Part shown: positions 5,059 to 38,609 of the stretch, one piece after another
How the letters are laid out: every line of letters starts with the position of its first letter
Numbering within the stretch: position 1 is the stretch's first letter
Assembly (NCBI GenBank): GCA_903868125.1
Contig: CAIPUE010000023.1
Span: 19,977 to 83,976, forward strand
From: an uncultured bacterium
Lineage (GTDB): Bacteria; Cyanobacteriota; Vampirovibrionia; Gastranaerophilales; Gastranaerophilaceae
Direction of reading: 5' to 3'
Length of the DNA stretch: 64,000 bases
Position numbers and translations under genes: made by a program
The notes under the pieces: model-generated
Database searches by the model: none
The model's input: only the letters and a program-made list of their open reading frames with translations
Told to the model about the DNA's origin: nothing

Positions 5059-5167
5059 TTTTAAAAAGAGTTTGAAGACATTTGCAAGTTAAAATACTTG
5101 CGAGAAAGCGCGAGCGTACAGAGGCTAAGAGCCGTTTAATGCAAGCGAGAAAGAAAAAAGGATTTTT

Positions 5168-7000
5168 ATGGAAAAAACAGGAAAAAAGATTATTATCGCA
5201 GAACGCGATAATATTGCTGCGATTATGGAAGGAAAAAAAGTCTCGGAATTTTTTGTTCACAGAGGTGACATTTTATTGGGCGATATTTATTTAGCGAAAG
5301 TCGAAAATATTCTACCAAGTATCGAAGCGGCATTTGTTGACGTTGGGGTCGATAAAATGGGGTTTTTACACGCACAAGATGTTGTCGGAAAAGGTGCGCT
5401 TAAAGATAAGCTTTCACCAAAACAAAAATTAGTGGTTCAGGTTGTGAAAGAACCGACAGGACACAAAGGGCCGAGAGTTACAACAGAAATAAGTCTGCCG
5501 GGAAGATTTTTGGTACTTATCCCGAACGAAACGGGGATTAACGTAAGCAGAAAAATAGATAGCGTTAAGGAAAAAGCCCGTTTAAAATCAATTGTAAACT
5601 TGCTAAAACCTGTAGGCGTAGGGGTTATTGTAAGAACCGAAGCTGCAGGTCAATCAGAGGCGGATATTCAGGAAGATTTGGAAGTATTGTTGGAAAAATG
5701 GAATAATATTGTAACTTCTGCTGATAGTTTAACCGCTCCGGCTTTGATTTCCAGAGATCAGGATCTTTTATACAGGGTCTTGAGAGAAGCTTGTACCGAC
5801 GATATTTCAGAAATTGTTGTCGACACCGTTTTCGCTATGAACAGAGTCCAACAGTTGCTTCAAAACTGGCATATGAGCCGAAATATTGAGGTTTCTTTGT
5901 ATAAGGGTACAGAACCGCTTTTGATTGCAACAGATGTTTATAAAGAAATTAAAACAGCACTTCAAACAAAGGTTAATTTACCTTCAGGCGGTTATTTGTA
6001 CATTCAAACAACCGAAGCCCTCAGCGTAATTGACGTGAACAGCGGTAAATTTACAAGCTCCGCAACTCAGGATGAAACTATTTTAAGAACGAATAAAGAA
6101 GCTATACACGAAATAGCAAGACAGTTACGTCTAAGAAATATTGGCGGGATGATTATCGTCGATTTTATTGATATGACTTCGCGCGTTGATAAATTAACAA
6201 TTTTGGAAGAATTTGAACTTGCGCTTGAACCTGATAAATCAAAACCTCAAATCGGGCAACTTTCTGATTTGGGACTTGTAGAGCTTACAAGGCACAGACA
6301 GGGGCAAAGTTTGTCTGAACTTTTTACAAAAAAATGTCCTCATTGTCAAGGAAACGGCTATGTGATGGAAGATTTTAAATTTGCTTCACCTACCGCAGAA
6401 GGCGAATATCGAGCAAAGGCAGCTAAATTAAAGCTTCCGGTGAGTAATTTCAAGAAAAACACTCCGATTAATAATTTCAAAAAAGAATTTAACACTCAAC
6501 AAAATGAAGCGCAGGGCGAAACTGAAACCGAAATTGTTGGTGAAAATAGTCTGCAATTACAGGAGAATAGAAACCGTAACAATAACAACAGACGAAATAA
6601 ATTCAATCGGAACAAAAACAGAGACAGATTCCCGATAGAAAATCAGGAACAAATAGGGGTTCAACCTGCCGGAGAAAGACCTGTTTTTGAGGGTAGACCA
6701 CAAGCCGTACTTCAACCTTTGGAAGAAAGACCTGTTTTTGAAAGTAGACCACAAGCCGTGGCTCAACCTGTTGAAGTAAAGCCAGCAGTTGAGATAAAGC
6801 CTCAATTTGAACAAAAACCGTTAATTCAATCGCCTCCGATAACGGAAATTAAAACGTCTGAATCAACGCAAATTGTCCAAGAAAATACGACTGAAGAAAA
6901 ACCTAAAAAAGCTATCAGAAGACCAAACAGAAATACTTCAAAGAGAGTTAAAGCAACGAATACTGAGGTGAAGAATGAAGAAGCACCCGACGCTTTATAA
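5168..7000 (+). CDS. rne: ribonuclease E/G family endoribonuclease
   Basis: 610 aa. S1 domain (GDIYLAKVENILPSIEAAFVDVG), catalytic core, Zn-link CPHCQGNGYV. Low-complexity N/R/P/Q-rich C-terminal tail. Confidence 0.9.
   Translation: MEKTGKKIIIAERDNIAAIMEGKKVSEFFVHRGDILLGDIYLAKVENILPSIEAAFVDVGVDKMGFLHAQDVVGKGALKDKLSPKQKLVVQVVKEPTGHKGPRVTTEISLPGRFLVLIPNETGINVSRKIDSVKEKARLKSIVNLLKPVGVGVIVRTEAAGQSEADIQEDLEVLLEKWNNIVTSADSLTAPALISRDQDLLYRVLREACTDDISEIVVDTVFAMNRVQQLLQNWHMSRNIEVSLYKGTEPLLIATDVYKEIKTALQTKVNLPSGGYLYIQTTEALSVIDVNSGKFTSSATQDETILRTNKEAIHEIARQLRLRNIGGMIIVDFIDMTSRVDKLTILEEFELALEPDKSKPQIGQLSDLGLVELTRHRQGQSLSELFTKKCPHCQGNGYVMEDFKFASPTAEGEYRAKAAKLKLPVSNFKKNTPINNFKKEFNTQQNEAQGETETEIVGENSLQLQENRNRNNNNRRNKFNRNKNRDRFPIENQEQIGVQPAGERPVFEGRPQAVLQPLEERPVFESRPQAVAQPVEVKPAVEIKPQFEQKPLIQSPPITEIKTSESTQIVQENTTEEKPKKAIRRPNRNTSKRVKATNTEVKNEEAPDAL
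6674..6775 (+). repeat. 51-bp x2 in-frame tandem repeat in the RNase E/G tail
   Basis: ERPVFEGRPQAVLQPLE / ERPVFESRPQAVAQPVE. The units start at 6674 and 6725. Confidence 0.9.
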
Positions 7001-22672: not shown

Positions 22673-25363
22673 ATGAAGCTTTTTGAGAAGAAGAATGTTA
22701 TTAGGATAGATGCAGATGATTTAAGAGATGCCAAACTGTCATCGATGGGTTTTATTGATGATAATACCCAAAAACGTGTGTTTATTGATATTCTTGGTGC
22801 AAGATTAGCCATGAAGATGCTTTTTGAAAAGAAAATTCAAGCAAGTAATCTATACAGTCTTTACACAATTCATAATGTTATTGAAGAACTTGATATAGCC
22901 GATATTTATTTTCAGGGAATAAAAATGGATGTTCGTTTGGTTTTTAACAGCGAAGAAATATTTATCCCGAAATCTCACTTTGAATACGGCTTATTACCTG
23001 ATTTGTACCTCGTTTTAGAGCTAAAAGAAGATTTATCTTCAGCAGATTTTATAGGATTTTTTGAACCTAAAATATTGAATCAACAAAATGCTAATAAAGA
23101 TTTTTACTTCCATGAGGCTGATAGATTAAATGACCCTAGTAATCTTAAGACCTTTTTAGAAGATTTTATAGTCGAAAACAATTTTGATATACCTGAAGAT
23201 AATATTGAAAATACAAAAGAATTATTTTTGTCATTGGTTGATAAAGAAATTTCTAAAAATGATAAACACTTTTTGTTTGAACAATTGGCAAAAAGTTCTT
23301 CGCTAAGAGAACAGGTCGTGGAATTCGAAAATTTTGAACTTATTTCAAGAGAAGCTGCGAAAAATGAAGACATGTTTAAAGATGGGGTTTTAGATATTGT
23401 CGGAGCTCAAAAAATATTTGATGAGATTGTGGATGATGAAGAATTTGGCCTGTTTGCTGCCGAGCTTGATAATGAATCTTTTGACACAGACAAAACAAGT
23501 CAATTAGCAGCAGAGATTGCTATTGGAGGTGCTATCGCGGGTGGCGTTGTTAATTTAGCTGCCGCAGGATTGGAATTAGAAGCTGCACTTGCCCAAAATA
23601 GCGTGGATAATTTGGCTGCCGGCATTGAATTGGGAGCTGAAATTGTTAAGGAAGGAACTGAATTTGTTTCCGAAACCGTAAATTTGGGAAGCGAAATTTT
23701 TGAACCGGAAGCGGAAAATATTCAATCTGAAATTGAGGATATGGCGTTATTGGAATATAGCTTATTTGGAGATATTGAGACACAAACTGAAGGATTTGAG
23801 GAATTACCTGAATTCGAACTCTTAGAGGATTCGTTGGAGACTTTTAATGATAATTTGCAGACAGAAGAACAATATTTTGATACGACAGAAAATGAAGAAC
23901 AAGAATCAAGTCAAAGCGAAGAAGTTTTGGAAGTAAATGATGTTGATTTAAACATGTTGGATGGAACGGATGAAAATTTTCAAAATGAGGCTATAGATGA
24001 CGTAGATTCTTTCGATTCGTCTTTATTTCAAAATGAAGAAATTGAACAAGAAGAAATTCCGCAGGAGTTTAAGGACTTGGGTGAGTTGGAAGAAACCCAA
24101 CAATTTAAAGCCGAAGAAGTTTTGGAATTAAATGCTTTTGATTTAAACATGTTAGATGGAATGGATGAGAATTTTCAAAGTGAGGCTATAGATGACGTAG
24201 ATTCTTTCGATTCGTCTTTATTTCAAAATGAAGAAATTGAGCAAGAATTTAAGGAGTTGGATGAATCGGAAGAAAACAAACAACTCGAATCCGATGGCGA
24301 AACAAATGTTTTACAAAGATTGAGGCAGTTAGAACAAGAAGAACAAGAAGAAATATTAGATGAAGATGAAGATGAAGTTCAAGAAAAGCCTGACGAATTT
24401 CTCTTTCAGGTTGACGAATTTTTAAAAGATGTAGAATTTTCTGATGAACAGAAAGAATTTTTAGAGGATAGCTTGTTTGATACTATTGATGAAACCGAAA
24501 CAATAAATCCATCACAACTTCCTGAAATAAATTATGTCGAGCATGAAGCATTTGATGATTTTGAGCAGGATATTAAATCTTCCGGAGATGATAAAGATCT
24601 GCTAAAGGTTTTGTTTGAAAAAGAAATGAACAAAAATGTTGAAATGTCGGCATTAGAGAATGAAGTAAATGAAACAAAGTATTTTGGAACTCCAATCTAT
24701 AAAAACAAAAAAATGATTATAGCGGCTTCTGTTGCCAGTGTTGTTCTTGCATCTTTGGTAATCGGCACAGGTGTTTTCCATAATAAAAATAATGAAACGA
24801 AATTTGCCAATAACGCCACTACTGCCCCAATATCAGCAGAAGGACAAGCTTTAAGCGGATTACAGCAAGAAAATGCCGCGAATTCGGGTTTAGGTCAACA
24901 AATGCCTGAACAAGCGACAGATTCAACCTTGCAACAACCAATTCAGGGTGAATATCAACAAGCTGATGCAAGCCGAGATATGGGCAAAGCGGTTTCTGAC
25001 GCATTTTTATCTGAACCGGTAAATGCAAGTATTTCAAAAGTAGCTTGGGAAGTCCCTGAAGATATTGCTTATAATGATACTTTTAGAAAATATTTGCAGA
25101 TAGCCGGCAAAAATTTGAAATTAAATCTTCAAAATGATTTGTTGCTTGCGACAGAGATGGCTTATTCTAACAAGGTTATAGTCGATTTAGTAATAAAAAA
25201 TGACGGTTCTTTGCAATCCGAAGAAATTGCAGCTTCGAGTGGTTCAAAGCAAATTGATAAGATAGTGTTACAAAGTGTTAAAGAAACTTTAAAATACTTA
25301 AAAATGCCTTCCAGTGAGCTTAGTGGCGGTTCTGCAACTGCTACCCTTATCATTAACTTTTAA
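22673..25363 (+). CDS. DUF1822-like N-terminal domain / long acidic repeat region / single TM / TonB_C-like C-terminal domain protein (anti-sigma-like architecture)
   Basis: 896 aa. The N-terminal ~160 aa fit the DUF1822 pattern (RVFIDILGARLAMKML; IADIYFQG.KMDVRLV...IFIPKSHFEYGLLPDLYLVLELKEDLSSADFIGFF). D/E-rich middle region with a 65-aa duplication. TM helix MIIAASVASVVLASLVIGTGVF. The C-terminal VIVDLVIKNDGSLQSEEIAASSGSKQIDKIVLQSVKETLKYLKMP resembles TonB_C. Confidence 0.5.
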   Translation: MKLFEKKNVIRIDADDLRDAKLSSMGFIDDNTQKRVFIDILGARLAMKMLFEKKIQASNLYSLYTIHNVIEELDIADIYFQGIKMDVRLVFNSEEIFIPKSHFEYGLLPDLYLVLELKEDLSSADFIGFFEPKILNQQNANKDFYFHEADRLNDPSNLKTFLEDFIVENNFDIPEDNIENTKELFLSLVDKEISKNDKHFLFEQLAKSSSLREQVVEFENFELISREAAKNEDMFKDGVLDIVGAQKIFDEIVDDEEFGLFAAELDNESFDTDKTSQLAAEIAIGGAIAGGVVNLAAAGLELEAALAQNSVDNLAAGIELGAEIVKEGTEFVSETVNLGSEIFEPEAENIQSEIEDMALLEYSLFGDIETQTEGFEELPEFELLEDSLETFNDNLQTEEQYFDTTENEEQESSQSEEVLEVNDVDLNMLDGTDENFQNEAIDDVDSFDSSLFQNEEIEQEEIPQEFKDLGELEETQQFKAEEVLELNAFDLNMLDGMDENFQSEAIDDVDSFDSSLFQNEEIEQEFKELDESEENKQLESDGETNVLQRLRQLEQEEQEEILDEDEDEVQEKPDEFLFQVDEFLKDVEFSDEQKEFLEDSLFDTIDETETINPSQLPEINYVEHEAFDDFEQDIKSSGDDKDLLKVLFEKEMNKNVEMSALENEVNETKYFGTPIYKNKKMIIAASVASVVLASLVIGTGVFHNKNNETKFANNATTAPISAEGQALSGLQQENAANSGLGQQMPEQATDSTLQQPIQGEYQQADASRDMGKAVSDAFLSEPVNASISKVAWEVPEDIAYNDTFRKYLQIAGKNLKLNLQNDLLLATEMAYSNKVIVDLVIKNDGSLQSEEIAASSGSKQIDKIVLQSVKETLKYLKMPSSELSGGSATATLIINF
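23918..24248 (+). repeat. 195-bp (65-aa) in-frame duplication in the acidic region of 22673..25363
   Basis: EEVLE[VL]N..DLNMLDG.DENFQ.EAIDDVDSFDSSLFQNEEIEQE occurs twice. The copies start at 23918 and 24113. Confidence 0.9.
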
Positions 25364-25990: not shown

Positions 25991-26012
25991 CTTTGAGTTG
26001 TGGGTAAAAGTT

Positions 26013-29000
26013 ATGATATGTCCCAAATGTAAAAAACAAATATCTGAAAAAACATTAAAGTGTAACCATTGTGGCGCTAAAATCGCTATTTTTTGCAAAA
26101 ATTGCCGTACTTATAATTCAATTTATAACTTGAATTGCACACATTGTGAAACCCCCCTTTTGAAAATTTGTCCGTCATGCAAAAGTGTAAATTTCCCAAA
26201 TGCTAAAATTTGCAGAAAATGCGGGCATGGATTTGATGGTGCAGGCAAGAAGGAAGATGAAATAGAAAAACGTGAACAGGAGTTAGAAGATTGTTCACCC
26301 GTTTATTCCTGCGCACATTCGCCTGAAATACCTTCCTCTATTCAAGCCAATGAGCCAAAAATTCAATCCACCAACTCTTCAACCATTAATTACGACACGG
26401 AGTTACATTCTCAACAAAAAGCAAAAGAACTCCTTCTTGAAGGACTTTTATCAATTGACAAAAAAATAATATCTTTGAGCGGACAAAAAGGGGTTGGAAA
26501 ATCAATTGTTTTAAAATCTGCAATCCATGAACTTAAAGAATACGGAATAACTTGGCTTTTGGGAGAATGTTCCGCCACAACTCAACTCAGTCCCTGCGGG
26601 CTTATTCAAGACATTTTGCTCATGTTTTTCAATATCTCAAATTTTTGTTCGGATGGACCTCAGCTTAAAAAAGAATCCCAAAAATTTTTTCAAACAGAAT
26701 TTCCAACTTTGACCAATGAAGAAATTTTTAGTCTTTTAAATCTTTTATATCCGACAAATACTGATTATTTTGAAAATATTCTTAAAAATAAAGAAAAAAC
26801 TTTTACGTTTTTAAAAAAAGTTTTTAAAACTATTATTGAAAGAAATAAAACAGTATTGGTTATAGAAAATTTTGAGTTGATTGACGGGTTTTCCTACGAG
26901 TTTTTACATAATTTATTAAATGTTGAATTTACCACAAAGTCCTTGAAGTTTTTATTGACTTACGATGAAATAAGACCGGCTAGAGGATATTTGTATAATG
27001 AAAAATTCAACAATCCATCTTATCTTGATATTTCACTAAACACTTTTGATAAGAACCAGATGAATTCATTTATAGACCAATATTTTTGTCAAGATAAATG
27101 TCCTCAACCCATAAAAGACAAACTATTTAGTGCCTCCGAGGGAAATCCCGCGATTTTGGAACAATTGGTGAGCTTATTAATGGATTTTAAAACCAGAAAT
27201 AACTCGTTTGAAATAAATGTGCCATTAACATTTGAAGATACTATTAAAATGCGTTTAGATTTTCTAAAAGAAAATCCTACAGCATACAAAATCCTATCGG
27301 CAGCATGTGTTCAAGGAATAAAATTTTCCCCCGCCATTATAAATCAAATTTTTAAACTTGAAGAAATTGAATTTCAAGGGATATTAAATCTTTTGCAAGA
27401 ATTAAATTTTATTATACAAGTCAATGAATACTCTTATTCTTTTAAAAACTCTACGCTTTGGTCAGAGATTTTTAAGGTTATAAAGAAAGATGAAAATTTT
27501 GCTTTTTTCAATAATAATTTATTTTCGGTTTATTCCGGCTATACCCTTTCATCAAATTCAATAATGGCAGTGATTGCCCAAAATCTTGGACAAGATTTGA
27601 CTGCCCTGAACTTTTGGACAGAGAATACTAAATTAGCCTCCTATATAGGGGATACAAACCTTTACGCAATAGCTCAAAAACAATGCTTAATTCTTATCGA
27701 AAATTTGGAAAATTCTGAGAATTCTCTTATAAAAAATAATATTTATGAAAGATTAGGTAAATTACTTTCAAAATCGAACCCTAAAGAGGCTATAGAGTAT
27801 TTACCCAATGCTATTTTAAATGCAAAAAATCTTCAAAATACTATAAAAGAAATTGAACTTACCGGATATTTAGCCAATTGTTGCATAAATTTGGGTAACT
27901 ATTACGGAACAATCGAATGTATAAATTCTGCGATAGCAAAACTTGATAATAGTTTTGAGCTTGAAGTGGCGATGTTAAAATCAAGAAAGACGGATGCACT
28001 TTTAAATATAGGAAATAGCGGTGAGATAATTAATCTTATAGATAATGAAATCCTGCCTGTTTTCGATAAATATCTCAATGCAAAACCACATAAAAATATA
28101 TCTATAAAATCTCTTTATATAGCGTGGTTGGATACTTATTTGGCACTTGCAAATGCTTTGATTTTCCAAGGCAATAGTCGTTCTTTTGAAGTTTTATCAA
28201 CATTATTTGAACTTTTACAAAAAAATAATTTTAATAATAAATTATTTATTTGTAAAGTCAAACTTGCCCTTGCTTTTGCAAACACAATAAAGGGTGATAT
28301 TGAGGCTTCTGAGGAAATATTAAGCGAAATTATCAAGGTTTATAAAACAGATATTATGGATAATGAAGCAATTTCTCGTTGGAACTTGATAAATATATTA
28401 AATAATTTTATACACAAAAAATACAGTGGAATTAAGGAAGAATTATTTCAGGTTGTGACTTTTGCAAATAATATTAATGACAATTTTACCAAAAATATTT
28501 TAAAAACATTGCTTGGAAAATTATTTAAAGATGAGGAAAATGCAAAGCATGCACTTGAAATTTATGAAGAGCAAATAACTTATTTTTCAAAAGAAAAAAA
28601 TGCTATTGGAGCTCTTGTAACATGGTATTTAATCGCCGAAGCAAATCTGATAACAGAAGGGCCCGAAAAGTGTCTTGAAGTAGCACAAAAGGCGTTAAAT
28701 GTGGCTCAAAGCACTAAAATAAACAATTATTATCTTATCATTTTGTATAATAAGGTAATTGCTGAAGCGTACATGACTCAGGCAGAATATGAATTAGCTA
28801 AGGTTCATCTTGAAAAAGCCATTTTAATCGCAAGAAAATTTGAGTTGTCCAATCTTTTGGCAGATCTTTACCTGTTATATGGGAAATATCTTCAAGATAT
28901 TGCACTTGTAAAGACAGATGTACAGTTTGATTGTGTTTCAGCGGCATCGAAAATGTATAAAAAGGCAACATTAATATCTAAAGAGATAAAAAATAACTAT

Positions 29001-29081
29001 TTGTTGGCAAAAATTGAAAAATCAAAAAATATTCTAAATTCATTTTGCCAACTTAACGGCATAACGCTAAAAGAAGAATAA
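26013..29081 (+). CDS. triple zinc-ribbon / STAND-type P-loop ATPase (AAA_16-like) / TPR-repeat protein
   Basis: Three CxxC..CxxC ribbons (CPKCKK..CNHCG; CKNCRT..CTHCE; CPSCKS..CRKCG). Walker A GQKGVGKS and Walker B VLVIENFELID. The ~550-aa C-terminal region is helical and TPR-like. The start is set to ATG 26013. Confidence 0.65.
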   Translation: MICPKCKKQISEKTLKCNHCGAKIAIFCKNCRTYNSIYNLNCTHCETPLLKICPSCKSVNFPNAKICRKCGHGFDGAGKKEDEIEKREQELEDCSPVYSCAHSPEIPSSIQANEPKIQSTNSSTINYDTELHSQQKAKELLLEGLLSIDKKIISLSGQKGVGKSIVLKSAIHELKEYGITWLLGECSATTQLSPCGLIQDILLMFFNISNFCSDGPQLKKESQKFFQTEFPTLTNEEIFSLLNLLYPTNTDYFENILKNKEKTFTFLKKVFKTIIERNKTVLVIENFELIDGFSYEFLHNLLNVEFTTKSLKFLLTYDEIRPARGYLYNEKFNNPSYLDISLNTFDKNQMNSFIDQYFCQDKCPQPIKDKLFSASEGNPAILEQLVSLLMDFKTRNNSFEINVPLTFEDTIKMRLDFLKENPTAYKILSAACVQGIKFSPAIINQIFKLEEIEFQGILNLLQELNFIIQVNEYSYSFKNSTLWSEIFKVIKKDENFAFFNNNLFSVYSGYTLSSNSIMAVIAQNLGQDLTALNFWTENTKLASYIGDTNLYAIAQKQCLILIENLENSENSLIKNNIYERLGKLLSKSNPKEAIEYLPNAILNAKNLQNTIKEIELTGYLANCCINLGNYYGTIECINSAIAKLDNSFELEVAMLKSRKTDALLNIGNSGEIINLIDNEILPVFDKYLNAKPHKNISIKSLYIAWLDTYLALANALIFQGNSRSFEVLSTLFELLQKNNFNNKLFICKVKLALAFANTIKGDIEASEEILSEIIKVYKTDIMDNEAISRWNLINILNNFIHKKYSGIKEELFQVVTFANNINDNFTKNILKTLLGKLFKDEENAKHALEIYEEQITYFSKEKNAIGALVTWYLIAEANLITEGPEKCLEVAQKALNVAQSTKINNYYLIILYNKVIAEAYMTQAEYELAKVHLEKAILIARKFELSNLLADLYLLYGKYLQDIALVKTDVQFDCVSAASKMYKKATLISKEIKNNYLLAKIEKSKNILNSFCQLNGITLKEE

Positions 29082-30745: not shown

Positions 30746-31354
30746 ATGAGTAATTTGAGCAATGATGTTGAAAACTTAAAGACTAAGTATAGAGAAATTT
30801 TTTCTCGGACGATTGAAGAGTTTAACCAGCGGGTTGAAAAAATAAAACCGCAGGAATTTTTAAAATTTTTAAACGAAGATATTTTGAAAGAAATTTATGA
30901 ACAGAAGTTGAAAATTTTAGAAAGTAGAAAAAAAATTTCTTGCACAGGCTGTGCTGCTTGTTGTAAATTGGCTTGCAGTGAGTTTTCTTATGATGAATTG
31001 AAACAAAAAGCGCAGAACGGTGATAATTTTGCAACACAATTTATAAGTGTTTTCGTCCCGTATGATACCGAAGTCGAGGCTGAAAAAATTTATCCTGAGT
31101 ATTTTGAATTATTAAAAAACAAAGCGGAAGACGAAAAAGTTTATTTTTATCACTGTCCGAAAGTTACAGAAGATAATCGTTGCCCCGATTATGAAAATCG
31201 TCCTCAGATATGTCGGGATTTTCCTGATAATCCTATCGGGTTTTTGCCAAAAACCTGCGGGTATACAAAATGGAAAGAAGAAGTGGAAGAACAGTCTCTA
31301 AAGCTTCATTCTTTGCTGGAAATAATAGAGTTTTATAAAAGCAAAATATCTTAG
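30746..31354 (+). CDS. YkgJ family cysteine-cluster (putative Zn/Fe-chelating, UPF0153) protein
   Basis: 202 aa. CTGCAACCKLAC (CxxCxxCC) plus the distal CPDYENRPQICRDFP motif. Confidence 0.65.
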   Translation: MSNLSNDVENLKTKYREIFSRTIEEFNQRVEKIKPQEFLKFLNEDILKEIYEQKLKILESRKKISCTGCAACCKLACSEFSYDELKQKAQNGDNFATQFISVFVPYDTEVEAEKIYPEYFELLKNKAEDEKVYFYHCPKVTEDNRCPDYENRPQICRDFPDNPIGFLPKTCGYTKWKEEVEEQSLKLHSLLEIIEFYKSKIS

Positions 31355-31402
31355 CGGGACTTTTTTTATTAGATTTATAATTTTTTAAAATCACATTATT
31401 AA

Positions 31403-31451
31403 GACCACTGCACAAGTATATTTTTGTAAAAAATGGACTTGTGCATTAGTC
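31403..31451. mobile_element. miniature/degenerate copy of the CCACTGCACAA element
   Basis: GACCACTGCACAAGTATA ... ACTTGTGCATTAGTC. This is the TIR pair with only ~20 nt between the arms. Confidence 0.55.
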
Positions 31452-31526
31452 TCTTATTTGTGGTACTATTTAGTTTAAAAGTGGAAACGAGGAACGAAAA
31501 AGTAAGATAATTTTTAGGAGTGCAAA

Positions 31527-32519
31527 ATGTTAAATGATAAAACGATTTTAATAACAGGTGGTACCGGCTCTTTCGGAAAAATGTTTACCAAAACTATATT
31601 AAAAAATCATCCTGAAATTAAAAAGATAATTATTTATTCAAGAGACGAATATAAACAGTTTGTAATGCAGAATATGCCTGAATTTAAACCTCATTATGAT
31701 AAAATGAGATATTTTATTGGAGATGTTCGAGACAAGGAGAGATTATATAGAGCGTTAGAGGGTGTTGATTATGTAATCCATGCGGCTGCACTTAAACAAG
31801 TTCCTGCTTGTGAATATAACCCTTTTGAAGCTGTAAAAACAAATATTATGGGCGCTCAAAATGTTATTGACGCTTGCTTGGATAAGGGCGTAAAAAGAGT
31901 TGTGGCTCTGTCAACCGATAAAGCCTGTGCTCCGATAAATCTTTACGGTGCGACAAAATTATGCTCGGATAAATTATTTATAGCCGGAAACGCTTATGCA
32001 GGATTTAAAGACACAAAATTTGCAGTAGTAAGATATGGAAACGTTGCCGGTTCAAGAGGTTCTGTAATCCCGTTTTTTCAAAAATTAATCAACGAGGGTG
32101 CAAAAGAGCTTCCTATAACCGATATGAATATGACAAGATTTTGGCTAAAGCTTGAAAGTGCCGTTCAAATGGTACTTGACGCCTTAGAAAATATGAATGG
32201 CGGAGAATTGTACGTCAAGAAAATTCCGTCCATGCTTATGCCTGATTTAGCAAAAGCTATGGCACCCGACTTAAAAATTAAAGAAGTGGGAATTCGTCCC
32301 GGCGAAAAAATTCACGAACAAATGATTACAAGAGAAGATGCAAGAAATACTCTCGAATTTGATGATTATTACATTATTTTACCTGATATTGATTTAGAAA
32401 ATATTACGCACAAGTATTCTCAAGGAAAACCTGTTGCCCCTGATTTTGAATATCACAGTGGAAACAACGATAGATGGCTTTCTGTTGAAGATATGAAAAA
32501 ATTAATAAGCGAGATTTAA
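31527..32519 (+). CDS. pseB: UDP-N-acetylglucosamine 4,6-dehydratase (inverting)
   Basis: 330 aa. ILITGGTGSFG, YSRDEYKQ, and Y..xK in GATKLCSDKLF. It is the first gene of the Pse operon. Confidence 0.85.
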   Translation: MLNDKTILITGGTGSFGKMFTKTILKNHPEIKKIIIYSRDEYKQFVMQNMPEFKPHYDKMRYFIGDVRDKERLYRALEGVDYVIHAAALKQVPACEYNPFEAVKTNIMGAQNVIDACLDKGVKRVVALSTDKACAPINLYGATKLCSDKLFIAGNAYAGFKDTKFAVVRYGNVAGSRGSVIPFFQKLINEGAKELPITDMNMTRFWLKLESAVQMVLDALENMNGGELYVKKIPSMLMPDLAKAMAPDLKIKEVGIRPGEKIHEQMITREDARNTLEFDDYYIILPDIDLENITHKYSQGKPVAPDFEYHSGNNDRWLSVEDMKKLISEI

Positions 32520-32522
32520 AAT

Positions 32523-33623
32523 ATGAAAAAATATACTTACGGTAAACAATCACTTAGTTTTAGTGATTTTTATAATGTCTTATCTACATTAAAATCACCT
32601 TTTTTAACCTGTGGACCAAAAGTAAAAGAATTTGAACAGGCGATTTGCGATTATACAGGAGCAAAGTATTGCGTTAGTGTTTCAAGCGCTACGGCGGGAC
32701 TTCATTTGGCAATGCTTGCAATAGGTATTGCAAAAGGGGATGAAGTTATAACATCGCCAAACACTTTTTTAGCGAGTTCTAATTGTGTGTTGTATGCGGG
32801 TGGAACAGTTAAATTTGCTGATATCGAACTTGAGACGGCAAATATTAATCCGGCAGAAATTGAAAAACAAATTACGGACAAAACAAAGGCGATTATACCT
32901 GTTCATTTTGCTGGGCAAAGTTGTGATATGGAAAAAATTCACGAAATTGCTACGAAAAATAATCTTTTCATTGTTGAAGATGCTGCTCATGCAATTGGTT
33001 CTGACTACAAAGATACTAAAGTCGGTTGTTGTAAGTATTCTGATATGACTATTTTTTCTTTTCATCCCGTAAAAACTATCACCACAGGCGAGGGTGGTGC
33101 AATAACCACTAATAACAAAGAACTGTACGAAAAATTATTGGCACTTCGTTCTCACGGGATGCATAAAGACGCTAAAATGGCGACAACATGGGAATATGAA
33201 ATGCGCGAATTGGGATTTAATTACAGATTGACAGATATCCAAGCGGCTTTGGGTATTTCACAATTAAAAAAGCTTGATAAATTCAAAAAACGCCGCAGGG
33301 AAATTGTTGAATATTACAATAAGCATTTGGGTTTGCCAAATTTAATCGAAAAGGATTTTTCTAATGCCTGTTTTCACTTATATCCTGTAATGGTTAGAAA
33401 CAGAGAAGAATTTTACCACAAAGCAAAAACGGTTGGTTTAAATTTGCAGGTGCATTATATTCCTGTTCATACTCAACCTTATTATAAAAATTTGGGATTT
33501 AATGAGGGCGACTATCCGAGTGCTGAAATTTATTATAAAAAATGTATTTCACTTCCGCTTTATCCGACTTTAAGTGATAGAGATTTGAAAGAAATTGTTA
33601 AAAGAATAAAGGATATTTTATGA
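32523..33623 (+). CDS. pseC: UDP-4-amino-4,6-dideoxy-N-acetyl-beta-L-altrosamine transaminase (DegT/DnrJ/EryC1 family)
   Basis: 366 aa. YGKQSL..., PLP-Lys region FSFHPVKTITTGEGG. It lies adjacent to pseB. Confidence 0.8.
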   Translation: MKKYTYGKQSLSFSDFYNVLSTLKSPFLTCGPKVKEFEQAICDYTGAKYCVSVSSATAGLHLAMLAIGIAKGDEVITSPNTFLASSNCVLYAGGTVKFADIELETANINPAEIEKQITDKTKAIIPVHFAGQSCDMEKIHEIATKNNLFIVEDAAHAIGSDYKDTKVGCCKYSDMTIFSFHPVKTITTGEGGAITTNNKELYEKLLALRSHGMHKDAKMATTWEYEMRELGFNYRLTDIQAALGISQLKKLDKFKKRRREIVEYYNKHLGLPNLIEKDFSNACFHLYPVMVRNREEFYHKAKTVGLNLQVHYIPVHTQPYYKNLGFNEGDYPSAEIYYKKCISLPLYPTLSDRDLKEIVKRIKDIL

Positions 33624-34375
33624 ATTTAGGCTTAAAGCTTTGGAGTAATAATACTGACGCTTACCTTGAAGAAGCCAAAAGGCTTTATAAGCAGGAGTGG
33701 TTTGATTATATAGAGCTTTATGTGGTCCCTGACACTCTTGAAACAATCGATAAATGGAAAAAACTAAATATTCCGTTCACTCTTCATGCTCCACATTTTG
33801 TTCACGAAGTTAATCTTGCCGATGTTACAAAAGAAGAATATAATATCAAAATTTTCAAACAGGTTAAGGAATTTTTTGATGAATTAAACGCCGGCTACGT
33901 GGTTGTGCATTCGGGCATAGAAGGCGATATTGATGAAACAATAAGGCAACTGGATATTATTCAACCCCCAAAAATGCTGATAGAAAATAAACCGTTTGTT
34001 GCGCCTTTGCGCGACAACAGAATTTGTCGCGGGGCGATGATTGAAGAAATTTCTAAAATTGTTGAAAAAATCGGATGCGGATTTTGTTTGGACGTAGGAC
34101 ACGCTATTTGTACAGCGAATACCTTAAAAATTGAACCTTACGACTTTATCAGGCAATTCAATGAACTGAATCCTATTTGTTATCATATGAGTGACAATTT
34201 TATCGACAGCGAACTTGATAAACATTTACATTTCGGGGCTGGAAATTATGATTTAAAGAGAATATTTGATATAATTGATACAGAAAAAAATATTGCGATT
34301 GAAACAAATAAGGGCAGCAAAGAAAATTTGAACGATTTTATTGAGGATGTAAAATTTCTTAAAAATGTGATATAA
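33620..34375 (+). CDS. xylose isomerase-like TIM-barrel (sugar phosphate isomerase/epimerase family) protein
   Basis: 251 aa. The pattern FTLHAP...VVVHSG...IENKP...CLDVGHA is typical of AP-endonuclease-2/xylose-isomerase-like barrels. Confidence 0.5.
   Translation: MNLGLKLWSNNTDAYLEEAKRLYKQEWFDYIELYVVPDTLETIDKWKKLNIPFTLHAPHFVHEVNLADVTKEEYNIKIFKQVKEFFDELNAGYVVVHSGIEGDIDETIRQLDIIQPPKMLIENKPFVAPLRDNRICRGAMIEEISKIVEKIGCGFCLDVGHAICTANTLKIEPYDFIRQFNELNPICYHMSDNFIDSELDKHLHFGAGNYDLKRIFDIIDTEKNIAIETNKGSKENLNDFIEDVKFLKNVI
34334..34355 (+). repeat. left copy of the 22-bp exact direct repeat flanking the MNT-HEPN cassette
   Basis: GATTTTATTGAGGATGTAAAAT, identical to 35089-35110. Confidence 0.95.
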
Positions 34376-34399
34376 TTACCTGAAAAGGAAAGACTTTAT

Positions 34400-34702
34400 A
34401 TGAAAAATGCCAAATTAATTGCAAAAAAATTAAGAGCTAAATTAAGAGAATATAATGATTTTGTAGGACTTTATTTGTATGGTTCTCAAATCACTCAAGA
34501 AGCTCGCGCTGACAGCGATATAGATATTGTTGCTATTTTTGAAAATGTAAAGGATGATTATGATGATATTATTCTAAAAGCTTGGGATATAGAAATAAAA
34601 AACAATGTTATAATAGATTTCCATCCATTTTCACTAAAACAATTAGACTTGGATCCATTTTATTTTAATGAAGTAAAAAAAGGTATATATTATGCAAGAT
34701 GA
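34400..34702 (+). CDS. nucleotidyltransferase-domain protein (MNT-type antitoxin candidate)
   Basis: 100 aa. GLYLYGSQITQEARADSDIDIV matches the minimal NTase motif G-S-x(n)-D-x-D. It overlaps the next ORF by 11 nt. Confidence 0.75.
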   Translation: MKNAKLIAKKLRAKLREYNDFVGLYLYGSQITQEARADSDIDIVAIFENVKDDYDDIILKAWDIEIKNNVIIDFHPFSLKQLDLDPFYFNEVKKGIYYAR

Positions 34703-35087
34703 AAATAAAATTTTGCTCGGGAATTGGCTTAACAAAAGTGATACGGCATTAGATGATACTAAAAAGAATATTGAAATAAATTCGCTAGAAACAGCTCAAA
34801 ACAGACTTTATTATGCAATTTTCTATGCGGTTAGTGCGTTAGCTAAATCAGAGGGTTTTATCACGGCTAAACACGGGCAACTTTTAGGGTGGTTTAATCA
34901 GAATTATGTAAATACAAATAAAATTGATAAAAATATAGCTAAAATTTACAGGCTTTCATTCGAAAATAGACAAAAATCGGATTATACTTTTTTTTATATT
35001 CCTAAAAAAGAAAAGTTGGAACAAGATGTATTAGAGGCAAGTATTTTTATAGCCGAAATTAAAAAAATATTAACAGAAAAATCTTGA
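34692..35087 (+). CDS. HEPN domain protein (toxin candidate of the MNT-HEPN pair)
   Basis: 131 aa, helical. NRLYYAIFYAVSALA ... ENRQKSDY is a PF05168-type R..x.DY motif. I see no canonical R-x4-6-H. Confidence 0.7.
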   Translation: MQDENKILLGNWLNKSDTALDDTKKNIEINSLETAQNRLYYAIFYAVSALAKSEGFITAKHGQLLGWFNQNYVNTNKIDKNIAKIYRLSFENRQKSDYTFFYIPKKEKLEQDVLEASIFIAEIKKILTEKS

Positions 35088-35088
35088 T

Positions 35089-35110
35089 GATTTTATTGAG
35101 GATGTAAAAT
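35089..35110 (+). repeat. right copy of the 22-bp exact direct repeat flanking the MNT-HEPN cassette
   Basis: GATTTTATTGAGGATGTAAAAT. It overlaps the pseH-like ATG (35109). Confidence 0.95.
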
Positions 35111-35561
35111 GGCTGAAGAATTTAAGATAGAGCTTGCTAAAATTGAGGATATGAAAAATGTTTTTGATTTATCTAATGACGAATTGGTAAGGCAAAATTC
35201 ATTTAATCAGGAAAAAATAAACTGGGACAATCATCAAGCTTGGTTTCAGAATAAAATTAATGATGAAAATTGCATTTTTTATAGTGTAAAAAGTTTTGAA
35301 AATGATTTTGTAGGATATGTTAGACTTGATAATGAAAATGATGAATGGATTTTAACGATTCATTTAAACCAAAATTATAGAGGAAAAGGGTTAGGAGCCA
35401 AAATATTGAATAAGGTTATTGAAATTAATAAAACTAAAAAAATAATTGCATTTGTAAAAGAAAAAAATCTGTCTTCTTATCATAGTTTTATTAAAGTCGG
35501 ATTTAAATTGAGAAAATTAATTAATAAAAACTCTGAAAAAACATACGAATTGGAGAATTAA
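35109..35561 (+). CDS. pseH: GNAT N-acetyltransferase, PseH-like
   Basis: 150 aa. WDNHQAWF, and GNAT motif A QNYRGKGLGAKIL. Located within the Pse operon. Confidence 0.6.
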   Translation: MAEEFKIELAKIEDMKNVFDLSNDELVRQNSFNQEKINWDNHQAWFQNKINDENCIFYSVKSFENDFVGYVRLDNENDEWILTIHLNQNYRGKGLGAKILNKVIEINKTKKIIAFVKEKNLSSYHSFIKVGFKLRKLINKNSEKTYELEN

Positions 35562-36229
35562 TGAATATAATTGCTATAAGTAACGACATGTATAATAATT
35601 CCGATTTATTTAGGATAGCTAACGTGACTTTTATTAAAGATAAAAGGGATTTAACTTATGAAAATTTAAAACAAATTAATCCCCAATATATATTTTTCCC
35701 TCACTGGTCTTATATTATTCCTAAAGAAATTTATGAAAATTTTGAATGTATAATCTTTCATATGACAGATTTACCTTTTGGCAGAGGCGGAAGCCCCTTG
35801 CAAAATTTAATTGAACGGGGGATATATCAAACAAAAATTTCTGCAATCAGGTGTGTTAAAGAACTTGATGCAGGGGATGTGTATTTTAAAAAAGATTTTT
35901 CTATAAAAACAGGTTCTGCCCATGAAATTTACAAAGATGGCGCGAAAATTATCTCAGAAATGATTGATGAGATAATTAAAACAAATCCCATTCCCCAAAA
36001 ACAAGAAGGTGAAATCGTTGAATTCAAAAGAAGAACCCCCGAAATGAGTAATATTCAGAACCTAAAAGATATAAACAAAATTTACGATTACATAAGAATG
36101 CTTGATGCACCTAATTATCCAAAGGCGTTTTTGGAATATGAAAAAGTTAAATACGAATTTTTTGATGCTAAAATTGAAGACGGAAAATTATTTGCAAAAG
36201 CGGAAATAAAGGTGAAAGATGAACAATAA
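35561..36229 (+). CDS. formyltransferase family protein (Fmt N-terminal-domain-like)
   Basis: 222 aa. IIFHMTDLPFGRGGSPLQNLIERG resembles the H-x-S-L-L-P-x-x-R-G formyltransferase motif. Confidence 0.55.
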   Translation: MNIIAISNDMYNNSDLFRIANVTFIKDKRDLTYENLKQINPQYIFFPHWSYIIPKEIYENFECIIFHMTDLPFGRGGSPLQNLIERGIYQTKISAIRCVKELDAGDVYFKKDFSIKTGSAHEIYKDGAKIISEMIDEIIKTNPIPQKQEGEIVEFKRRTPEMSNIQNLKDINKIYDYIRMLDAPNYPKAFLEYEKVKYEFFDAKIEDGKLFAKAEIKVKDEQ

Positions 36230-36899
36230 AAAGATTTTAATAGTAGCGGCTCATCCTGACGATGAGGTTTTAGGATGTTTTGCAACGGTCGCAAAATTTA
36301 TTAAGCAAGGTTATGACGCCTATACTTTAATTCTAAGCGGAGGCAAAACCTCTCGCGGAAAGGTCGATGAAAACGAACTTCATCTGCTTCAAGAAGAGAT
36401 GAAAAGCGCGAACGATTTTATTGGAATCAAAAAAGTTTTTATTGCGAATTTTCCTGATAACGCTTTTGATAGTGTATCTTTACTTGAGATAGTTAAAGAA
36501 ATTGAAAAAGTCAAAAATGAAATCAAGCCGGAAATCATATTTACTCATCACTTTGGGGATATGAACATTGACCATCAAATAACACATCAGGCAGTTTTAA
36601 CCGCGACCAGACCCATGAATGATGAATGTGTAAAAACGATTTATTCAATGGAAGTGCCATCTTCTACGGAATGGAACTCTTTTTCAGCTCAAACGGCGTT
36701 TATTCCAAACGTGTTTTTTGAAGTCGAAGATACAATTGATTTAAAGATTGAAGCAATGGCAAAATATAAATCTGAATTACGAGAATATCCGCATCCTCGT
36801 TCTTTGCAACATCTCAAAGAACTTGCAAAGGCAAACGGCACAAAAGTCGGACTCAATTACAGTGAAAATTTTATGCTGATAAGGAATGTAAATGTCTAA
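36219..36899 (+). CDS. PIG-L/LmbE family deacetylase
   Basis: 226 aa. ILIVAAHPDDEVLGC and HHFGDMNIDH motifs. Confidence 0.75.
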   Translation: MNNKKILIVAAHPDDEVLGCFATVAKFIKQGYDAYTLILSGGKTSRGKVDENELHLLQEEMKSANDFIGIKKVFIANFPDNAFDSVSLLEIVKEIEKVKNEIKPEIIFTHHFGDMNIDHQITHQAVLTATRPMNDECVKTIYSMEVPSSTEWNSFSAQTAFIPNVFFEVEDTIDLKIEAMAKYKSELREYPHPRSLQHLKELAKANGTKVGLNYSENFMLIRNVNV

Positions 36900-37920
36900 A
36901 TTTTTTCAAAAACCATTTATAATTGCCGAGATGTCGGGAAATCACAACCAATCGCTTGAAAGAGCTCTGACAATAGTTGAGGCAGCGGCGAGTTGCGGTG
37001 TGGACGCACTCAAAATTCAAACTTATACGCCTGATACTATGACAATTGATTGCAACAGTTCTGATTTTGTAATCCAAGATGAAAATTCTCTTTGGGATGG
37101 CGAGAAACTTTATGATTTGTACAAAAAGGCGGCAACGCCTTATGAGTGGCATAAATCGATTTTTGATAAATGCAAAGAGCTTGGAATTATTGGGTTTTCA
37201 ACTCCTTTTGATTTATCGAGTGTAGATTTTTTGGAAAGCTTAGATTGTCCGATTTATAAAATTGCAAGCTTTGAAAACGGCGATATTCCTTTGTTAAAAA
37301 GAATTGCTCAAACTCAAAAACCGGTGATAATGTCTTTGGGGATGATAGGACTTGAAGAAACAAAAGAAGCTATTGATACGCTAATGAATAACGGTTGCGA
37401 GGATTTGACTCTTTTGAAATGTACCTCAAGCTATCCTGCGAGCGTCGAAAATTCGAATTTATTAACCATTCCTGATTTACAAAAACATTTTCCAAACTGC
37501 AAAATCGGGCTTTCCGATCATACTCTTGGAATTGGGACTGCTATTGCCGGTGTTTCATTAGGTGCTTGTGTCATTGAAAAACACTTCACTTTGTCTCGAG
37601 CCGATGGTGGTGTTGACAGTGCGTTTTCAATGGAGCCTCAGGAGATGAAACAGTTGGTTGAAGAGTGCCATAACGCATATAAAGCTTTAGGCAAAGTGAA
37701 TTATGAACTGAGTGAGAGCGAAAAAAATTCGCTGAAATTCAGACGCTCTTTGTATGTCGTAAAAGATATTAAAAAAGGTGAAAAATTCACTTCTGAGAAT
37801 ATCCGCTCTATTCGCCCCGGATACGGACTTCATCCAAGATATTTCGAGGAAATTTTGGGAAAAGCGGCGAAAAAAGATTTGTGTTTTGGAGCTCCGCTCA
37901 AAATGGGGGATTTTGAATGA
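36892..37920 (+). CDS. pseI: pseudaminic acid synthase (NeuB family)
   Basis: 342 aa. FIIAEMSGNHNQSLERA, with a C-terminal SAF domain (RRSLYVVKDIKKGEKFT..NIRSIRPG). Confidence 0.85.
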   Translation: MSKFFQKPFIIAEMSGNHNQSLERALTIVEAAASCGVDALKIQTYTPDTMTIDCNSSDFVIQDENSLWDGEKLYDLYKKAATPYEWHKSIFDKCKELGIIGFSTPFDLSSVDFLESLDCPIYKIASFENGDIPLLKRIAQTQKPVIMSLGMIGLEETKEAIDTLMNNGCEDLTLLKCTSSYPASVENSNLLTIPDLQKHFPNCKIGLSDHTLGIGTAIAGVSLGACVIEKHFTLSRADGGVDSAFSMEPQEMKQLVEECHNAYKALGKVNYELSESEKNSLKFRRSLYVVKDIKKGEKFTSENIRSIRPGYGLHPRYFEEILGKAAKKDLCFGAPLKMGDFE

Positions 37921-38609
37921 AAAATATCGCAATAATTCCAGCCAGAGGCGGAAGTAAAAGAATCCCGAGAAAAAATATTAAAGATTTTTTTGGTAAACCC
38001 ATAATCGCTTATTCTATCGAAGCTGCCATTAAAAGTGGAGTATTTGATGAAATTATGGTTTCAACGGATGATGTTGAAATTGCCGAAATTGCAAAAAAAT
38101 ATGGTGCAAAAGTTCCTTTTTTCAGAAGTCTTGAACTGTCTAATGATATGGCAATGACTGCACCTGTTTTAATTAATGCTTTAGAAGAATACAAAAAAAT
38201 AGGTCAAGAGTTTGATTATGGTTGCTGCATATATCCTTGCGCCCCTTTTATTGATTCCAATAAGCTTAAAAGCGGGCTTGAAACAATGCTTAATAAAAAA
38301 GCAACCTCGGCAATACCTGTGGTAAAATATTCTTATCCTATTCAAAGGGCTTTGACAATCAAGGATGGAACTCTTTCAATGATTTTGCCTGAGAATATGA
38401 ATGTCCGTTCGCAAGATTTGGAACCAACCTATCATGATGTCGGGCAATATTACTGGTTTGAGATTGAAAGTTTTATAAAAAATCCTGTTTTATTCTCAAA
38501 AAATACTGTCGCAATAATTACTCCTGAAAGTGAAGTTCAAGATATTGATACGGAAGATGATTGGGAAATAGCAGAGATGAAGTATAAAATATTAAATAGG
38601 TTGATATAA
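37917..38609 (+). CDS. pseF: pseudaminic acid cytidylyltransferase
   Basis: 230 aa. IAIIPARGGSKRIPRKNIKDF..GKPIIAYSI is a CMP-sugar synthetase signature. Confidence 0.8.
   Translation: MKNIAIIPARGGSKRIPRKNIKDFFGKPIIAYSIEAAIKSGVFDEIMVSTDDVEIAEIAKKYGAKVPFFRSLELSNDMAMTAPVLINALEEYKKIGQEFDYGCCIYPCAPFIDSNKLKSGLETMLNKKATSAIPVVKYSYPIQRALTIKDGTLSMILPENMNVRSQDLEPTYHDVGQYYWFEIESFIKNPVLFSKNTVAIITPESEVQDIDTEDDWEIAEMKYKILNRLI

Follow-up and report, generated by a model that had tools for sequence, protein, structure and literature searches.

In this study, we concluded that a two-gene cassette, encoding a minimal nucleotidyltransferase (MNT) and a HEPN protein, was most probably inserted long ago into a pseudaminic acid (Pse) operon of an uncultured Gastranaerophilaceae bacterium (contig CAIPUE010000023.1). 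The operon lies in the 64,000-nucleotide stretch analysed here (the window), which is ordinary bacterial chromosome. The names attached to some HEPN and HepT homologues, together with L001, suggest Melainabacteria/Gastranaerophilales-like bacteria. The cassette runs in the same direction as its neighbours and stands where the 3′ end of a TIM-barrel gene would formerly have overlapped the 5′ end of a GNAT acetyltransferase gene; about 51 nt of this junction appear to have been duplicated, with illegitimate recombination as the likely route. We put the probability of this reading at roughly 0.75.

Duplicated Junction and Cassette-Free Loci

The cassette is bracketed by an exact 22-nt direct repeat (GATTTTATTGAGGATGTAAAAT; coordinates in Table 1). 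No third copy occurs in the window even when three mismatches are allowed, and a chance repeat was rejected because none of 100 dinucleotide-preserving shuffles gave a match (0 expected by chance). This repeat, the coordinates of the genes and the translations of both copies had been given in a preliminary description of the DNA, and all of them were reproduced. In the repeat search, the 22-mer formed the core of a 52-nt repeat of 79% identity (34323-34374 against 35078-35129). Read in the frame of the TIM-barrel gene, the left copy gives SKENLNDFIEDVKFLKNVI and a stop, and the right copy gives a stop, QKNLDDFIEDVKWLKNLR and a stop, with the final stop at the same position in both. The identity between the copies falls sharply at 34355/34356, from 22/22 to 12/20, and the right copy reaches upstream into the 3′ end of the HEPN gene, whose stop codon (35085-35087) lies inside it. 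Both copies also contain, within GAGGATGTAAAAT, the minimal start-stop open reading frame (ORF) ATGTAA (34346-34351 and 35101-35106), and that of the right copy is positioned just 5′ of the GNAT ATG.

A consensus of the junction was built from five empty sites, in the loci numbered L003, L004, L008, L015 and L016. The right copy agrees with it at 47/51 positions and the left copy at 40/51, and because the right copy is the closer of the two, it is read as the native 3′ end of the TIM-barrel gene, stranded as a relic. The tail of the left copy, beyond the 22-mer, matches the native tail in fixed register at 13/20 positions in the window and 14/20 in locus L009, with an empirical P of about 4e-4 to 1.6e-3 for a random 20-mer in the same register (about 1.6e-3 for 13/20). 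In this tail the GNAT ATG is gone (AAAATGG has become AAAATTT) and the stop stands at the native position.

The empty sites themselves show what the junction looks like when no cassette is present. In L004, L008, L015 and L016 the sequence is found in a single copy and the TIM-barrel and GNAT genes overlap by 22 nt; L008 also has the downstream gene order of the window. L003 has the same junction sequence, with the GNAT ORF cut to 40 aa; in this locus (L003:3938-5616) the truncated GNAT is followed by ORFs without a Pfam match. We found 687 homologues of the TIM-barrel protein, which lie in a Pse-locus setting wherever their context was examined. Among 117 clusters of them, 54 end in ...VKW[LI]K.. 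(W-type, like the right copy and including the GNAT ATG), and only two carry the F-type tail F[LI]KN[VM]I of the left copy; most of the close homologues terminate in ...DFIEDVKWLKNLK and a stop, in the style of the right copy. An insertion that duplicated the junction is the best reading, because the empty sites are single-copy with the 22-nt overlap and the homologues end as the right copy does. The preliminary description had proposed this comparison, and its suggested ancestral state, a TIM-barrel gene overlapping GNAT at its end and duplicated so that both genes stayed intact, is borne out by the empty sites. The duplication itself likewise stands, and its earlier estimate of about 42 bp gives way to at least 51 nt, the extent favoured here. 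The genome collection yielded two distant TIM-barrel relatives only, neither informative on the junction, and the window's own TIM-barrel protein had no exact record in the contig index. In L005-L007 the TIM-barrel protein ends ..GRNTNG and a methyltransferase gene follows in place of GNAT.

Filled Relatives and Age of the Insertion

The same arrangement with the same junctions was found in L009, from SRR21359777, where the TIM-barrel protein is 72% identical and ends FIKNMI, followed by MNT, HEPN, a relic reading NLNDFIEDMKWLKNLI between two stops, and GNAT. L010 has the same junctions as the window. One ENA contig shows the same gene order; it is a third candidate filled locus on gene order only, and the insertion is probably common to it as well. 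In ENA contig ERZ27297709, MNT-HEPN is directly followed by NeuB, with no GNAT.

Between the filled loci, the MNT and HEPN proteins are 76-89% identical, and the insertion in the window has about 80% nucleotide identity to those of L009 and L010. The dN/dS ratios are 0.07-0.12 for MNT and 0.12-0.14 for HEPN, so both genes have been maintained by purifying selection. Synonymous sites are near saturation between all loci, the closest empty one included, and the insertion must therefore be old. The slightly lower NG86 pS within the cassette is accompanied, once codon usage is allowed for, by an excess of codon identity that is similar in cassette and flanks. Thus, the footprint of a cassette insertion, as read in the preliminary description, stands, and the freshness implied by its talk of mobility does not, since the same junctions recur in L009 and L010.

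The exactness of the 22-mer is best explained by constraint rather than recency, because the left copy codes for DFIEDVK and the right copy forms the translation-initiation region of GNAT, with its ribosome-binding site (RBS) and ATG; chance or gene conversion may have contributed. The empty L003 has exactly the 22-mer of the window, and L008 has a version with 1 nt changed. The two 22-mers of L009 are not identical to each other and match the empty-site consensus at 19/22 (left) and 20/22 (right), with mismatches at different positions. No relative of the cassette was found among viral contigs, and a metagenome scan with the HEPN alignment, using weak N-terminal patterns, gave no match.

Proposed Model of the Insertion

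Considering the above results, we propose a plausible model for the entry of the cassette. The target would have been the TIM-barrel 3′ end overlapping the GNAT 5′ end by 22 nt, and the event an illegitimate, microhomology-assisted recombination with staggered joints, whose products were filtered by selection. Illegitimate recombination is likely because no recombinase is in sight: no transposase or integrase ORF was recognised in or beside the cassette by ORF and Pfam analysis, and only MNT and HEPN lie between the repeats. With about 51 nt duplicated, the left copy would complete the TIM-barrel gene, and the right copy would persist as a relic that gives GNAT its RBS (GAGGA) and ATG and incidentally supplies the last HEPN codons and stop. 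The left tail would then have lost its superfluous GNAT ATG. Because the genes overlapped and the GNAT RBS lay inside the TIM-barrel gene, only insertions duplicating at least the stretch from RBS to stop would keep both genes.

The right joint lies just past the HEPN codons ..EIKKIL, where homologues end with 0-6 further variable residues, and the last codons and stop of the window's HEPN gene are encoded by the relic. Owing to a 1-nt indel, the frame in which the HEPN ORF runs out into the relic differs between the window and L009.

Family and Probable Function of the Inserted Pair

The catalytic signature of MNT, LYLYGS...SDIDIV, is kept in the window, L009, L010 and L011. Against the NCBIfam MntA equivalog (NF047752) the protein scores 31.3 bits, with a cut-off of 60 bits. 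The HEPN protein passes the gathering score of PF05168 (36.3 bits against a 22-bit cut-off, residues 11-123); it has no NCBIfam HepT match, and Pfam returns PF05168 only, not DUF86/PF01934. No R-x4-6-H occurs in its sequence, which has RQKSDY instead of the Rx4H of HepT. Among 63 homologues, R38, H61, D97 and Y98 are each invariant (63/63) and R93 is kept in 62/63. In phmmer searches, HEPN matched 9xbd_A and 2hsb (AF0298), and MNT matched chain E of 9xbd, with E of about 1e-5 and at low identity; the two proteins thus correspond to different chains of one HEPN-nucleotidyltransferase complex, and H61 aligns with the His of 9xbd_A and 2hsb. No paper for PDB 9xbd/9xbc was found in the literature. 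PADLOC gave candidate systems, PDC-S09 for MNT and a weak PDC-M05B for HEPN.

HEPN-T proteins of the AF0298 type retain the motif Arg, have lost the His and possess an alternative conserved His on the N-terminal side (Anantharaman et al., 2013, PMC3710099). The window's HEPN has the same features: the motif Arg is kept, its His is absent, and H61 is the second conserved His, N-terminal to it. The MNT gene lies immediately 5′ and overlaps, by 11 nt in the window, and the same layout occurs in L009, L010 and L011. The pair was filed as an MNT-associated HEPN-T and not as a member of HepT/MntA, because neither protein reaches the curated type VII thresholds. The earlier label of toxin-antitoxin (TA) cassette is accordingly kept as a family resemblance, and the stabilisation of the locus by addiction that was raised with it as a conjecture.

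Two known systems are close enough for comparison. The type VII HepT/MntA pairs (Shewanella SO_3166/SO_3165, PMC7641770, PMC4621449; Legionella HEPN-MNT, PMC11586414) likewise consist of small overlapping genes with the nucleotidyltransferase first, an MNT with GS...DxD and a conserved tyrosine near the arginine motif, and by analogy the two likely work alike, the nucleotidyltransferase neutralising a partner toxin that is an RNase. In contrast, the window's pair has a PF05168 HEPN rather than DUF86/PF01934, lacks Rx4-6H, lies below the equivalog cut-offs and is known from its sequence alone. AF0298 HEPN-T (2hsb, UPF0332; PMC3710099) and 9xbd share with it PF05168, the kept Arg and absent His, H61 and the upstream MNT, although the window's proteins have low identity to the solved ones.

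The module probably works as a HEPN/MNT toxin-antitoxin or abortive-infection pair, to judge from these family relationships. HEPN would be an RNase using the alternative R93/H61 site of the AF0298-type family, and MNT would neutralise it by binding, by nucleotidylylation or by both, perhaps on Y98. This invariant tyrosine, next to R93 and D97, is the sole pointer to a candidate (oligo)AMPylation site. A relative of the cassette in L011-L013, with a 74% identical HEPN, lies beside AbiEi/AbiEii and outside any Pse locus, a setting that favours a generic conflict module over a pathway enzyme. In L011 (L011:3709-6509) and L012, this surrounding consists of AbiEi, AbiEii split into two ORFs (90 and 196 aa) and a DUF4143 protein, a small defence/TA island.

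Candidate Promoter of the Cassette

An extended -10-like element, TG(A/C)TATAAT, precedes every MNT-first cassette examined, 7-37 nt from the start codon. It has the form TGATATAAT in the window, L009, L010, L014, L015 and L016, and the form TGCTATAAT in L011-13; the distance to the MNT start is about 24 nt in the window and L009. In L011, TGCTATAAT is only 7 nt from the MNT ATG, and the mRNA may be leaderless. The element TGATATAAT probably gives the module its own promoter. No terminator-like site was found in a scan of the cassette, so transcription from the operon probably runs through the module as well.

Alternative Readings

Several observations weigh against the reading set out above. 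A closely similar 5′ sequence precedes an unrelated MntA gene in other loci, so that the left tail could be cassette-derived, with a duplication of about 31 nt. On a rough neighbour-joining (NJ) tree of the 117 TIM-barrel clusters, one gain inherited vertically would have to be followed by no fewer than 10 precise losses. As to function, the HEPN protein is without Rx4-6H, neither protein attains a curated TA threshold, the PADLOC hits are to candidate systems only, and toxicity is a prediction. Lastly, a two-hexamer promoter scan did not list TGATATAAT, which it missed because there is no good -35.

The first of these points bears on the extent of the duplication. In L015 (4410-5032) and L016 (4714-5333), a MntA-HepT pair lies between PseC and the TIM-barrel gene, and the TIM-barrel/GNAT junction is empty there. 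The HepT of this pair carries RNVIIH, an Rx4H motif, and in NCBIfam the two proteins match MntA and HepT best, with 47-51 bits where 60 are required; the HepT proteins of L014 and L015 have RN(I/V)IIH, are HepT-like in Pfam and have HepT as best NCBIfam match at 43-47 bits, again below 60. The L015 MntA and the window's MNT share about 30% identity. The L015/L016 pair and the window's unrelated MNT-HEPN cassette nevertheless have about 45 nt of 5′ sequence in common: in L015, the stretch between the PseC stop and the RBS (AATTTATTAACAATATGATATAATTAAC..AAAAAGGA) agrees by eye at about 25/28 positions with the TIM-barrel tail and 5′ untranslated region of L009, and the agreement is weaker in L016.

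It is possible, though we hold it to be the less likely course, that the duplication covered no more than about 31 nt (AATCTTGAT plus the 22-mer) and that the last six TIM-barrel codons and stop (FLKNVI and stop) came from the promoter region of the cassette. The cassette's 5′ region would then have been joined just after the 22-mer, with its resemblance to the native tail helping (homeology-guided joining), and the tail stretch TTTATCAAGAAT before the -10 element would be cassette-derived. The sharp drop in identity at 34355/34356 fits such a joint, as does the presence of TTTATYAASAATATGATATAATTA...AAAAGGA upstream of MntA at the PseC/TIM-barrel site in L015/L016, right after the PseC stop. 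This presence at another site does not discriminate between the models, because the MNT families are unrelated and a secondary exchange is needed under either. Moreover, the left tail matches the native tail in fixed register and shares the position of its stop codon, which speaks against a foreign origin, and L011, which is outside the Pse loci, shares only the -10 core and not the extended region. We therefore regard the left tail as a diverged duplicate rather than the 5′ region of a cassette, by roughly two to one; at least 31 nt were duplicated under either model.

Further observations concern the PseC/TIM-barrel site. L016 has an apparent relic of the PseC end before the TIM-barrel start (AAAGAATATCTAATGA against native AAAGGATATTTTATGA), and this resemblance suggests that the same junction-preserving logic may have operated there. 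L014 (1-1089; ENA ERZ4223863) is a contig of 1,089 bp with a coverage of 2.9. Its positions 398-931 are 100% identical to window 34323-34856, starting from the exact left edge of the 52-nt repeat. Upstream, the end of a MntA gene and a HepT gene are joined to this edge through 8-9 nt of microhomology, the HepT stop lying inside the fragment of the TIM-barrel tail; downstream, unrelated sequence of higher GC content breaks HEPN at codon 56. The contig is either a real variant, with both junctions filled and the TIM-barrel gene deleted, or a chimera of assembly or amplification.

The number of losses required leads to a second alternative, which we hold to be possible but less likely, namely that the cassette is a recombinationally mobile unit. 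Recombination between the repeats would excise it precisely and restore the overlap, as excised or transformed DNA it could re-enter other Pse loci at the nearly invariant 22-mer by homologous (Campbell-type) recombination, and its presence and absence would reflect repeated loss and lateral gain rather than one vertical history. The flanks of the window are indeed closer to the empty L008 and L005 than to the filled L009, with identities of 90/88/82% for PseB, 91/89/87% for PseC, 85/83/72% for the TIM-barrel protein and 89/89/83% for PseI in that order. On the NJ tree many empty loci stand between the two filled ones. Few stretches of the junction are as well conserved as the 22-mer across the compared loci, and all filled loci have the left tail and the upstream portion of the relic in common, with lineage-specific sequence just outside. 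On the other side, the synonymous identity of the cassette is not above that of the flanks once codon usage is allowed for, only three filled loci are represented by DNA, the NJ tree is based on a single gene, and no excision product or circle was observed. Since the presence of the cassette does not follow the TIM-barrel tree, the single old insertion that we favour is not the whole history. A bolder and quite speculative extension is that the junctions flanking the TIM-barrel gene are recurrent landing pads for MNT/HEPN cassettes, with the junction and the 5′ region of about 45 nt serving as portable homology in a recombinase-free cassette system. If so, cassettes would excise precisely, swap partners and spread among surface-glycan loci, likely a phage-receptor pathway, by homologous recombination.

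A third possibility is that MNT-HEPN is a domesticated accessory of the sugar pathway, for instance a two-subunit, KNTase-like nucleotidyltransferase whose substrate is a pathway intermediate or a protein. It would account for genes kept intact under purifying selection in several Pse loci, co-directional and without terminators within the operon, and for a HEPN without the canonical RNase motif, and some HEPN domains have been exapted as substrate-binding subunits of nucleotidyltransferases (PMC3710099). We consider it improbable. The pair is rare and patchy, occurring in 2/117 TIM-barrel clusters, and a close relative lies beside AbiE genes outside the sugar loci; its ORFs overlap and MNT leads, a layout typical of TA modules; the alternative H/R catalytic pair is retained within the family; and in other loci the neighbouring junction is taken by a HepT/MntA pair of canonical type.

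The weakest alternative, a recent transposon, integron cassette or other site-specific element that left the 22-bp repeat as a fresh target-site duplication, has in its favour the 22/22 identity of the window's copies and is highly improbable, given that the junctions recur in L009 and L010, where nucleotide identity is about 80% and synonymous sites are near saturation, and given the equally exact 22-mer in the empty L003, and the absence of a transposase or integrase, of flanking inverted repeats and of room for an attC. A transposon or insertion sequence with target-site duplication was rejected because there is no transposase, the repeat search found no flanking, and hence no terminal, inverted repeat, and the repeat consists of about 51 nt of TIM-barrel coding sequence. 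An integron cassette was rejected as well: no integrase occurs among the neighbouring genes, no imperfect palindrome is present in the 21 nt between the HEPN stop and the GNAT ATG, and this gap is entirely TIM-barrel-derived relic. The likeness to such elements is that of direct repeats flanking an inserted gene cassette; the difference is that about 51 nt of host coding sequence are repeated here, rather than a short target-site duplication of fixed length.

The insertion is closer to the TA modules described in chromosomal operons and islands (Makarova et al., 2009, PMC2701414), with which it shares a small selfish or defence module of two genes, a patchy distribution, a GC content lower than that of neighbouring core genes, and relatives in a defence-island context. 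It differs from them in its overlapping-gene insertion point, the unusually legible 51-nt duplication, the survival of the native copy as a relic and the availability of several empty sites. We found no paper in the literature that links TA modules with pseudaminic acid loci.

Gene Content of the Locus

The features of the insertion are collected in Table 1. The gene order of the locus is PseB, PseC, TIM-barrel, MNT, HEPN, GNAT, formyltransferase-like, PIG-L deacetylase, PseI and PseF, and farther downstream lie genes for a Pse-associated methylase, WbuX, HisH, a WbuZ-like protein and a radical SAM enzyme. PseB, PseC, PseI and PseF were recognised as equivalogs, at 535, 471, 515 and 316 bits, all above their cut-offs. 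The GNAT protein scores 34.9 bits against the PseH equivalog, with a cut-off of 93.1 bits, and the name pseH-like given to its gene earlier therefore holds as a family resemblance only. No PseG was recognised among the proteins scanned. The interval between PseC and PseI (window 33620-36899) thus holds the TIM-barrel, a sub-cut-off GNAT, formyltransferase-like and PIG-L genes instead of PseG and a bona fide PseH, which suggests a variant of the pseudaminic acid route or a modified pseudaminic acid. The GC content of the cassette is 0.26-0.29 against 0.34 in the core Pse genes, a weak signal because the neighbouring GNAT gene is equally AT-rich. No Rfam match was found in window 31000-38000.

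Table 1. Features of the cassette and of the duplicated junction in the window.
Feature	Coordinates	Strand	Basis
TIM-barrel gene, xylose isomerase-like PF01261	33620..34375	+	Pfam; last 17 codons are the left repeat copy
Left junction copy, functional TIM-barrel 3′ end (..ENLNDFIEDVKFLKNVI and stop)	34325..34375	+	40/51 to consensus
Exact 22-mer, left, codes DFIEDVK	34334..34355	+	Exact sequence match
Diverged left tail	34356..34375	+	13/20 against native tail
TGATATAAT, extended -10-like element overlapping the TIM-barrel stop, candidate cassette promoter	34368..34376	+	Precedes every MNT-first cassette examined
MNT, minimal nucleotidyltransferase, 100 aa, putative antitoxin	34400..34702	+	PF18765/PF01909, GS...DxD
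HEPN, PF05168, AF0298/UPF0332 type, 131 aa, putative RNase toxin	34692..35087	+	Pfam
Right copy, non-coding relic of the native TIM-barrel end (NLDDFIEDVKWLKNLR and stop), holds HEPN stop, GNAT RBS and ATG	35080..35130	+	47/51 to consensus
Exact 22-mer, right; includes GAGGA 35098-35102 and first two bases of GNAT ATG	35089..35110	+	
GNAT acetyltransferase, PseH-like	35109..35561	+	Pfam, Acetyltransf_3 type; below PseH cut-off

Upstream of the Pse locus, two large ORFs were noted (window 25998-29081 and 22673-25363). The upstream proteins are one of 1027 aa with double zinc ribbon, AAA_22/AAA_16 and TPR domains (a STAND-like NTPase) and one of 896 aa with a TonB C-terminal domain.

The TIM-barrel gene itself carries a further insertion in other loci. 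In L008 (5352-5814, inside the TIM-barrel gene at 5001-6218), about 150 aa with DUF559 (PF04480) and MTES_1575 (PF18741) are inserted in frame, and the TIM-barrel gene of L015 (5044-6249) has the insertion at the same position, between the residues equivalent to 117 and 118 of the window's protein; proteins P0003, P0023 and P0053 belong here. The gene is otherwise AT-rich, but the ends of this nuclease insertion are GC-rich and hairpin-like (CCCTCCCCTTGAGGGAGGG ... CCTCTCCCTCGAGGGG). The insertion has the look of a separate mobile element that the protein tolerates within its chain, and it may be more novel than the MNT-HEPN insertion.

Significance

No new class of element is involved: the MNT-HEPN cassette belongs to a known kind of module, inserted long ago, whose footprint can still be read with unusual clarity. 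On the reading favoured here, a selfish or defence module can enter a packed operon and leave it undamaged, and the survivors at overlapping junctions would be those insertions that duplicated the overlap, the native copy persisting as a relic on which translation of the following gene still depends. The case also shows that an exact direct repeat can mislead on age, where constraint from coding and ribosome binding outlasts synonymous saturation. Furthermore, two kinds of MNT/HEPN cassette at the junctions of one gene, together with a nuclease element inside that gene, may point to a link between glycan loci and conflict systems, which we offer as a hypothesis.

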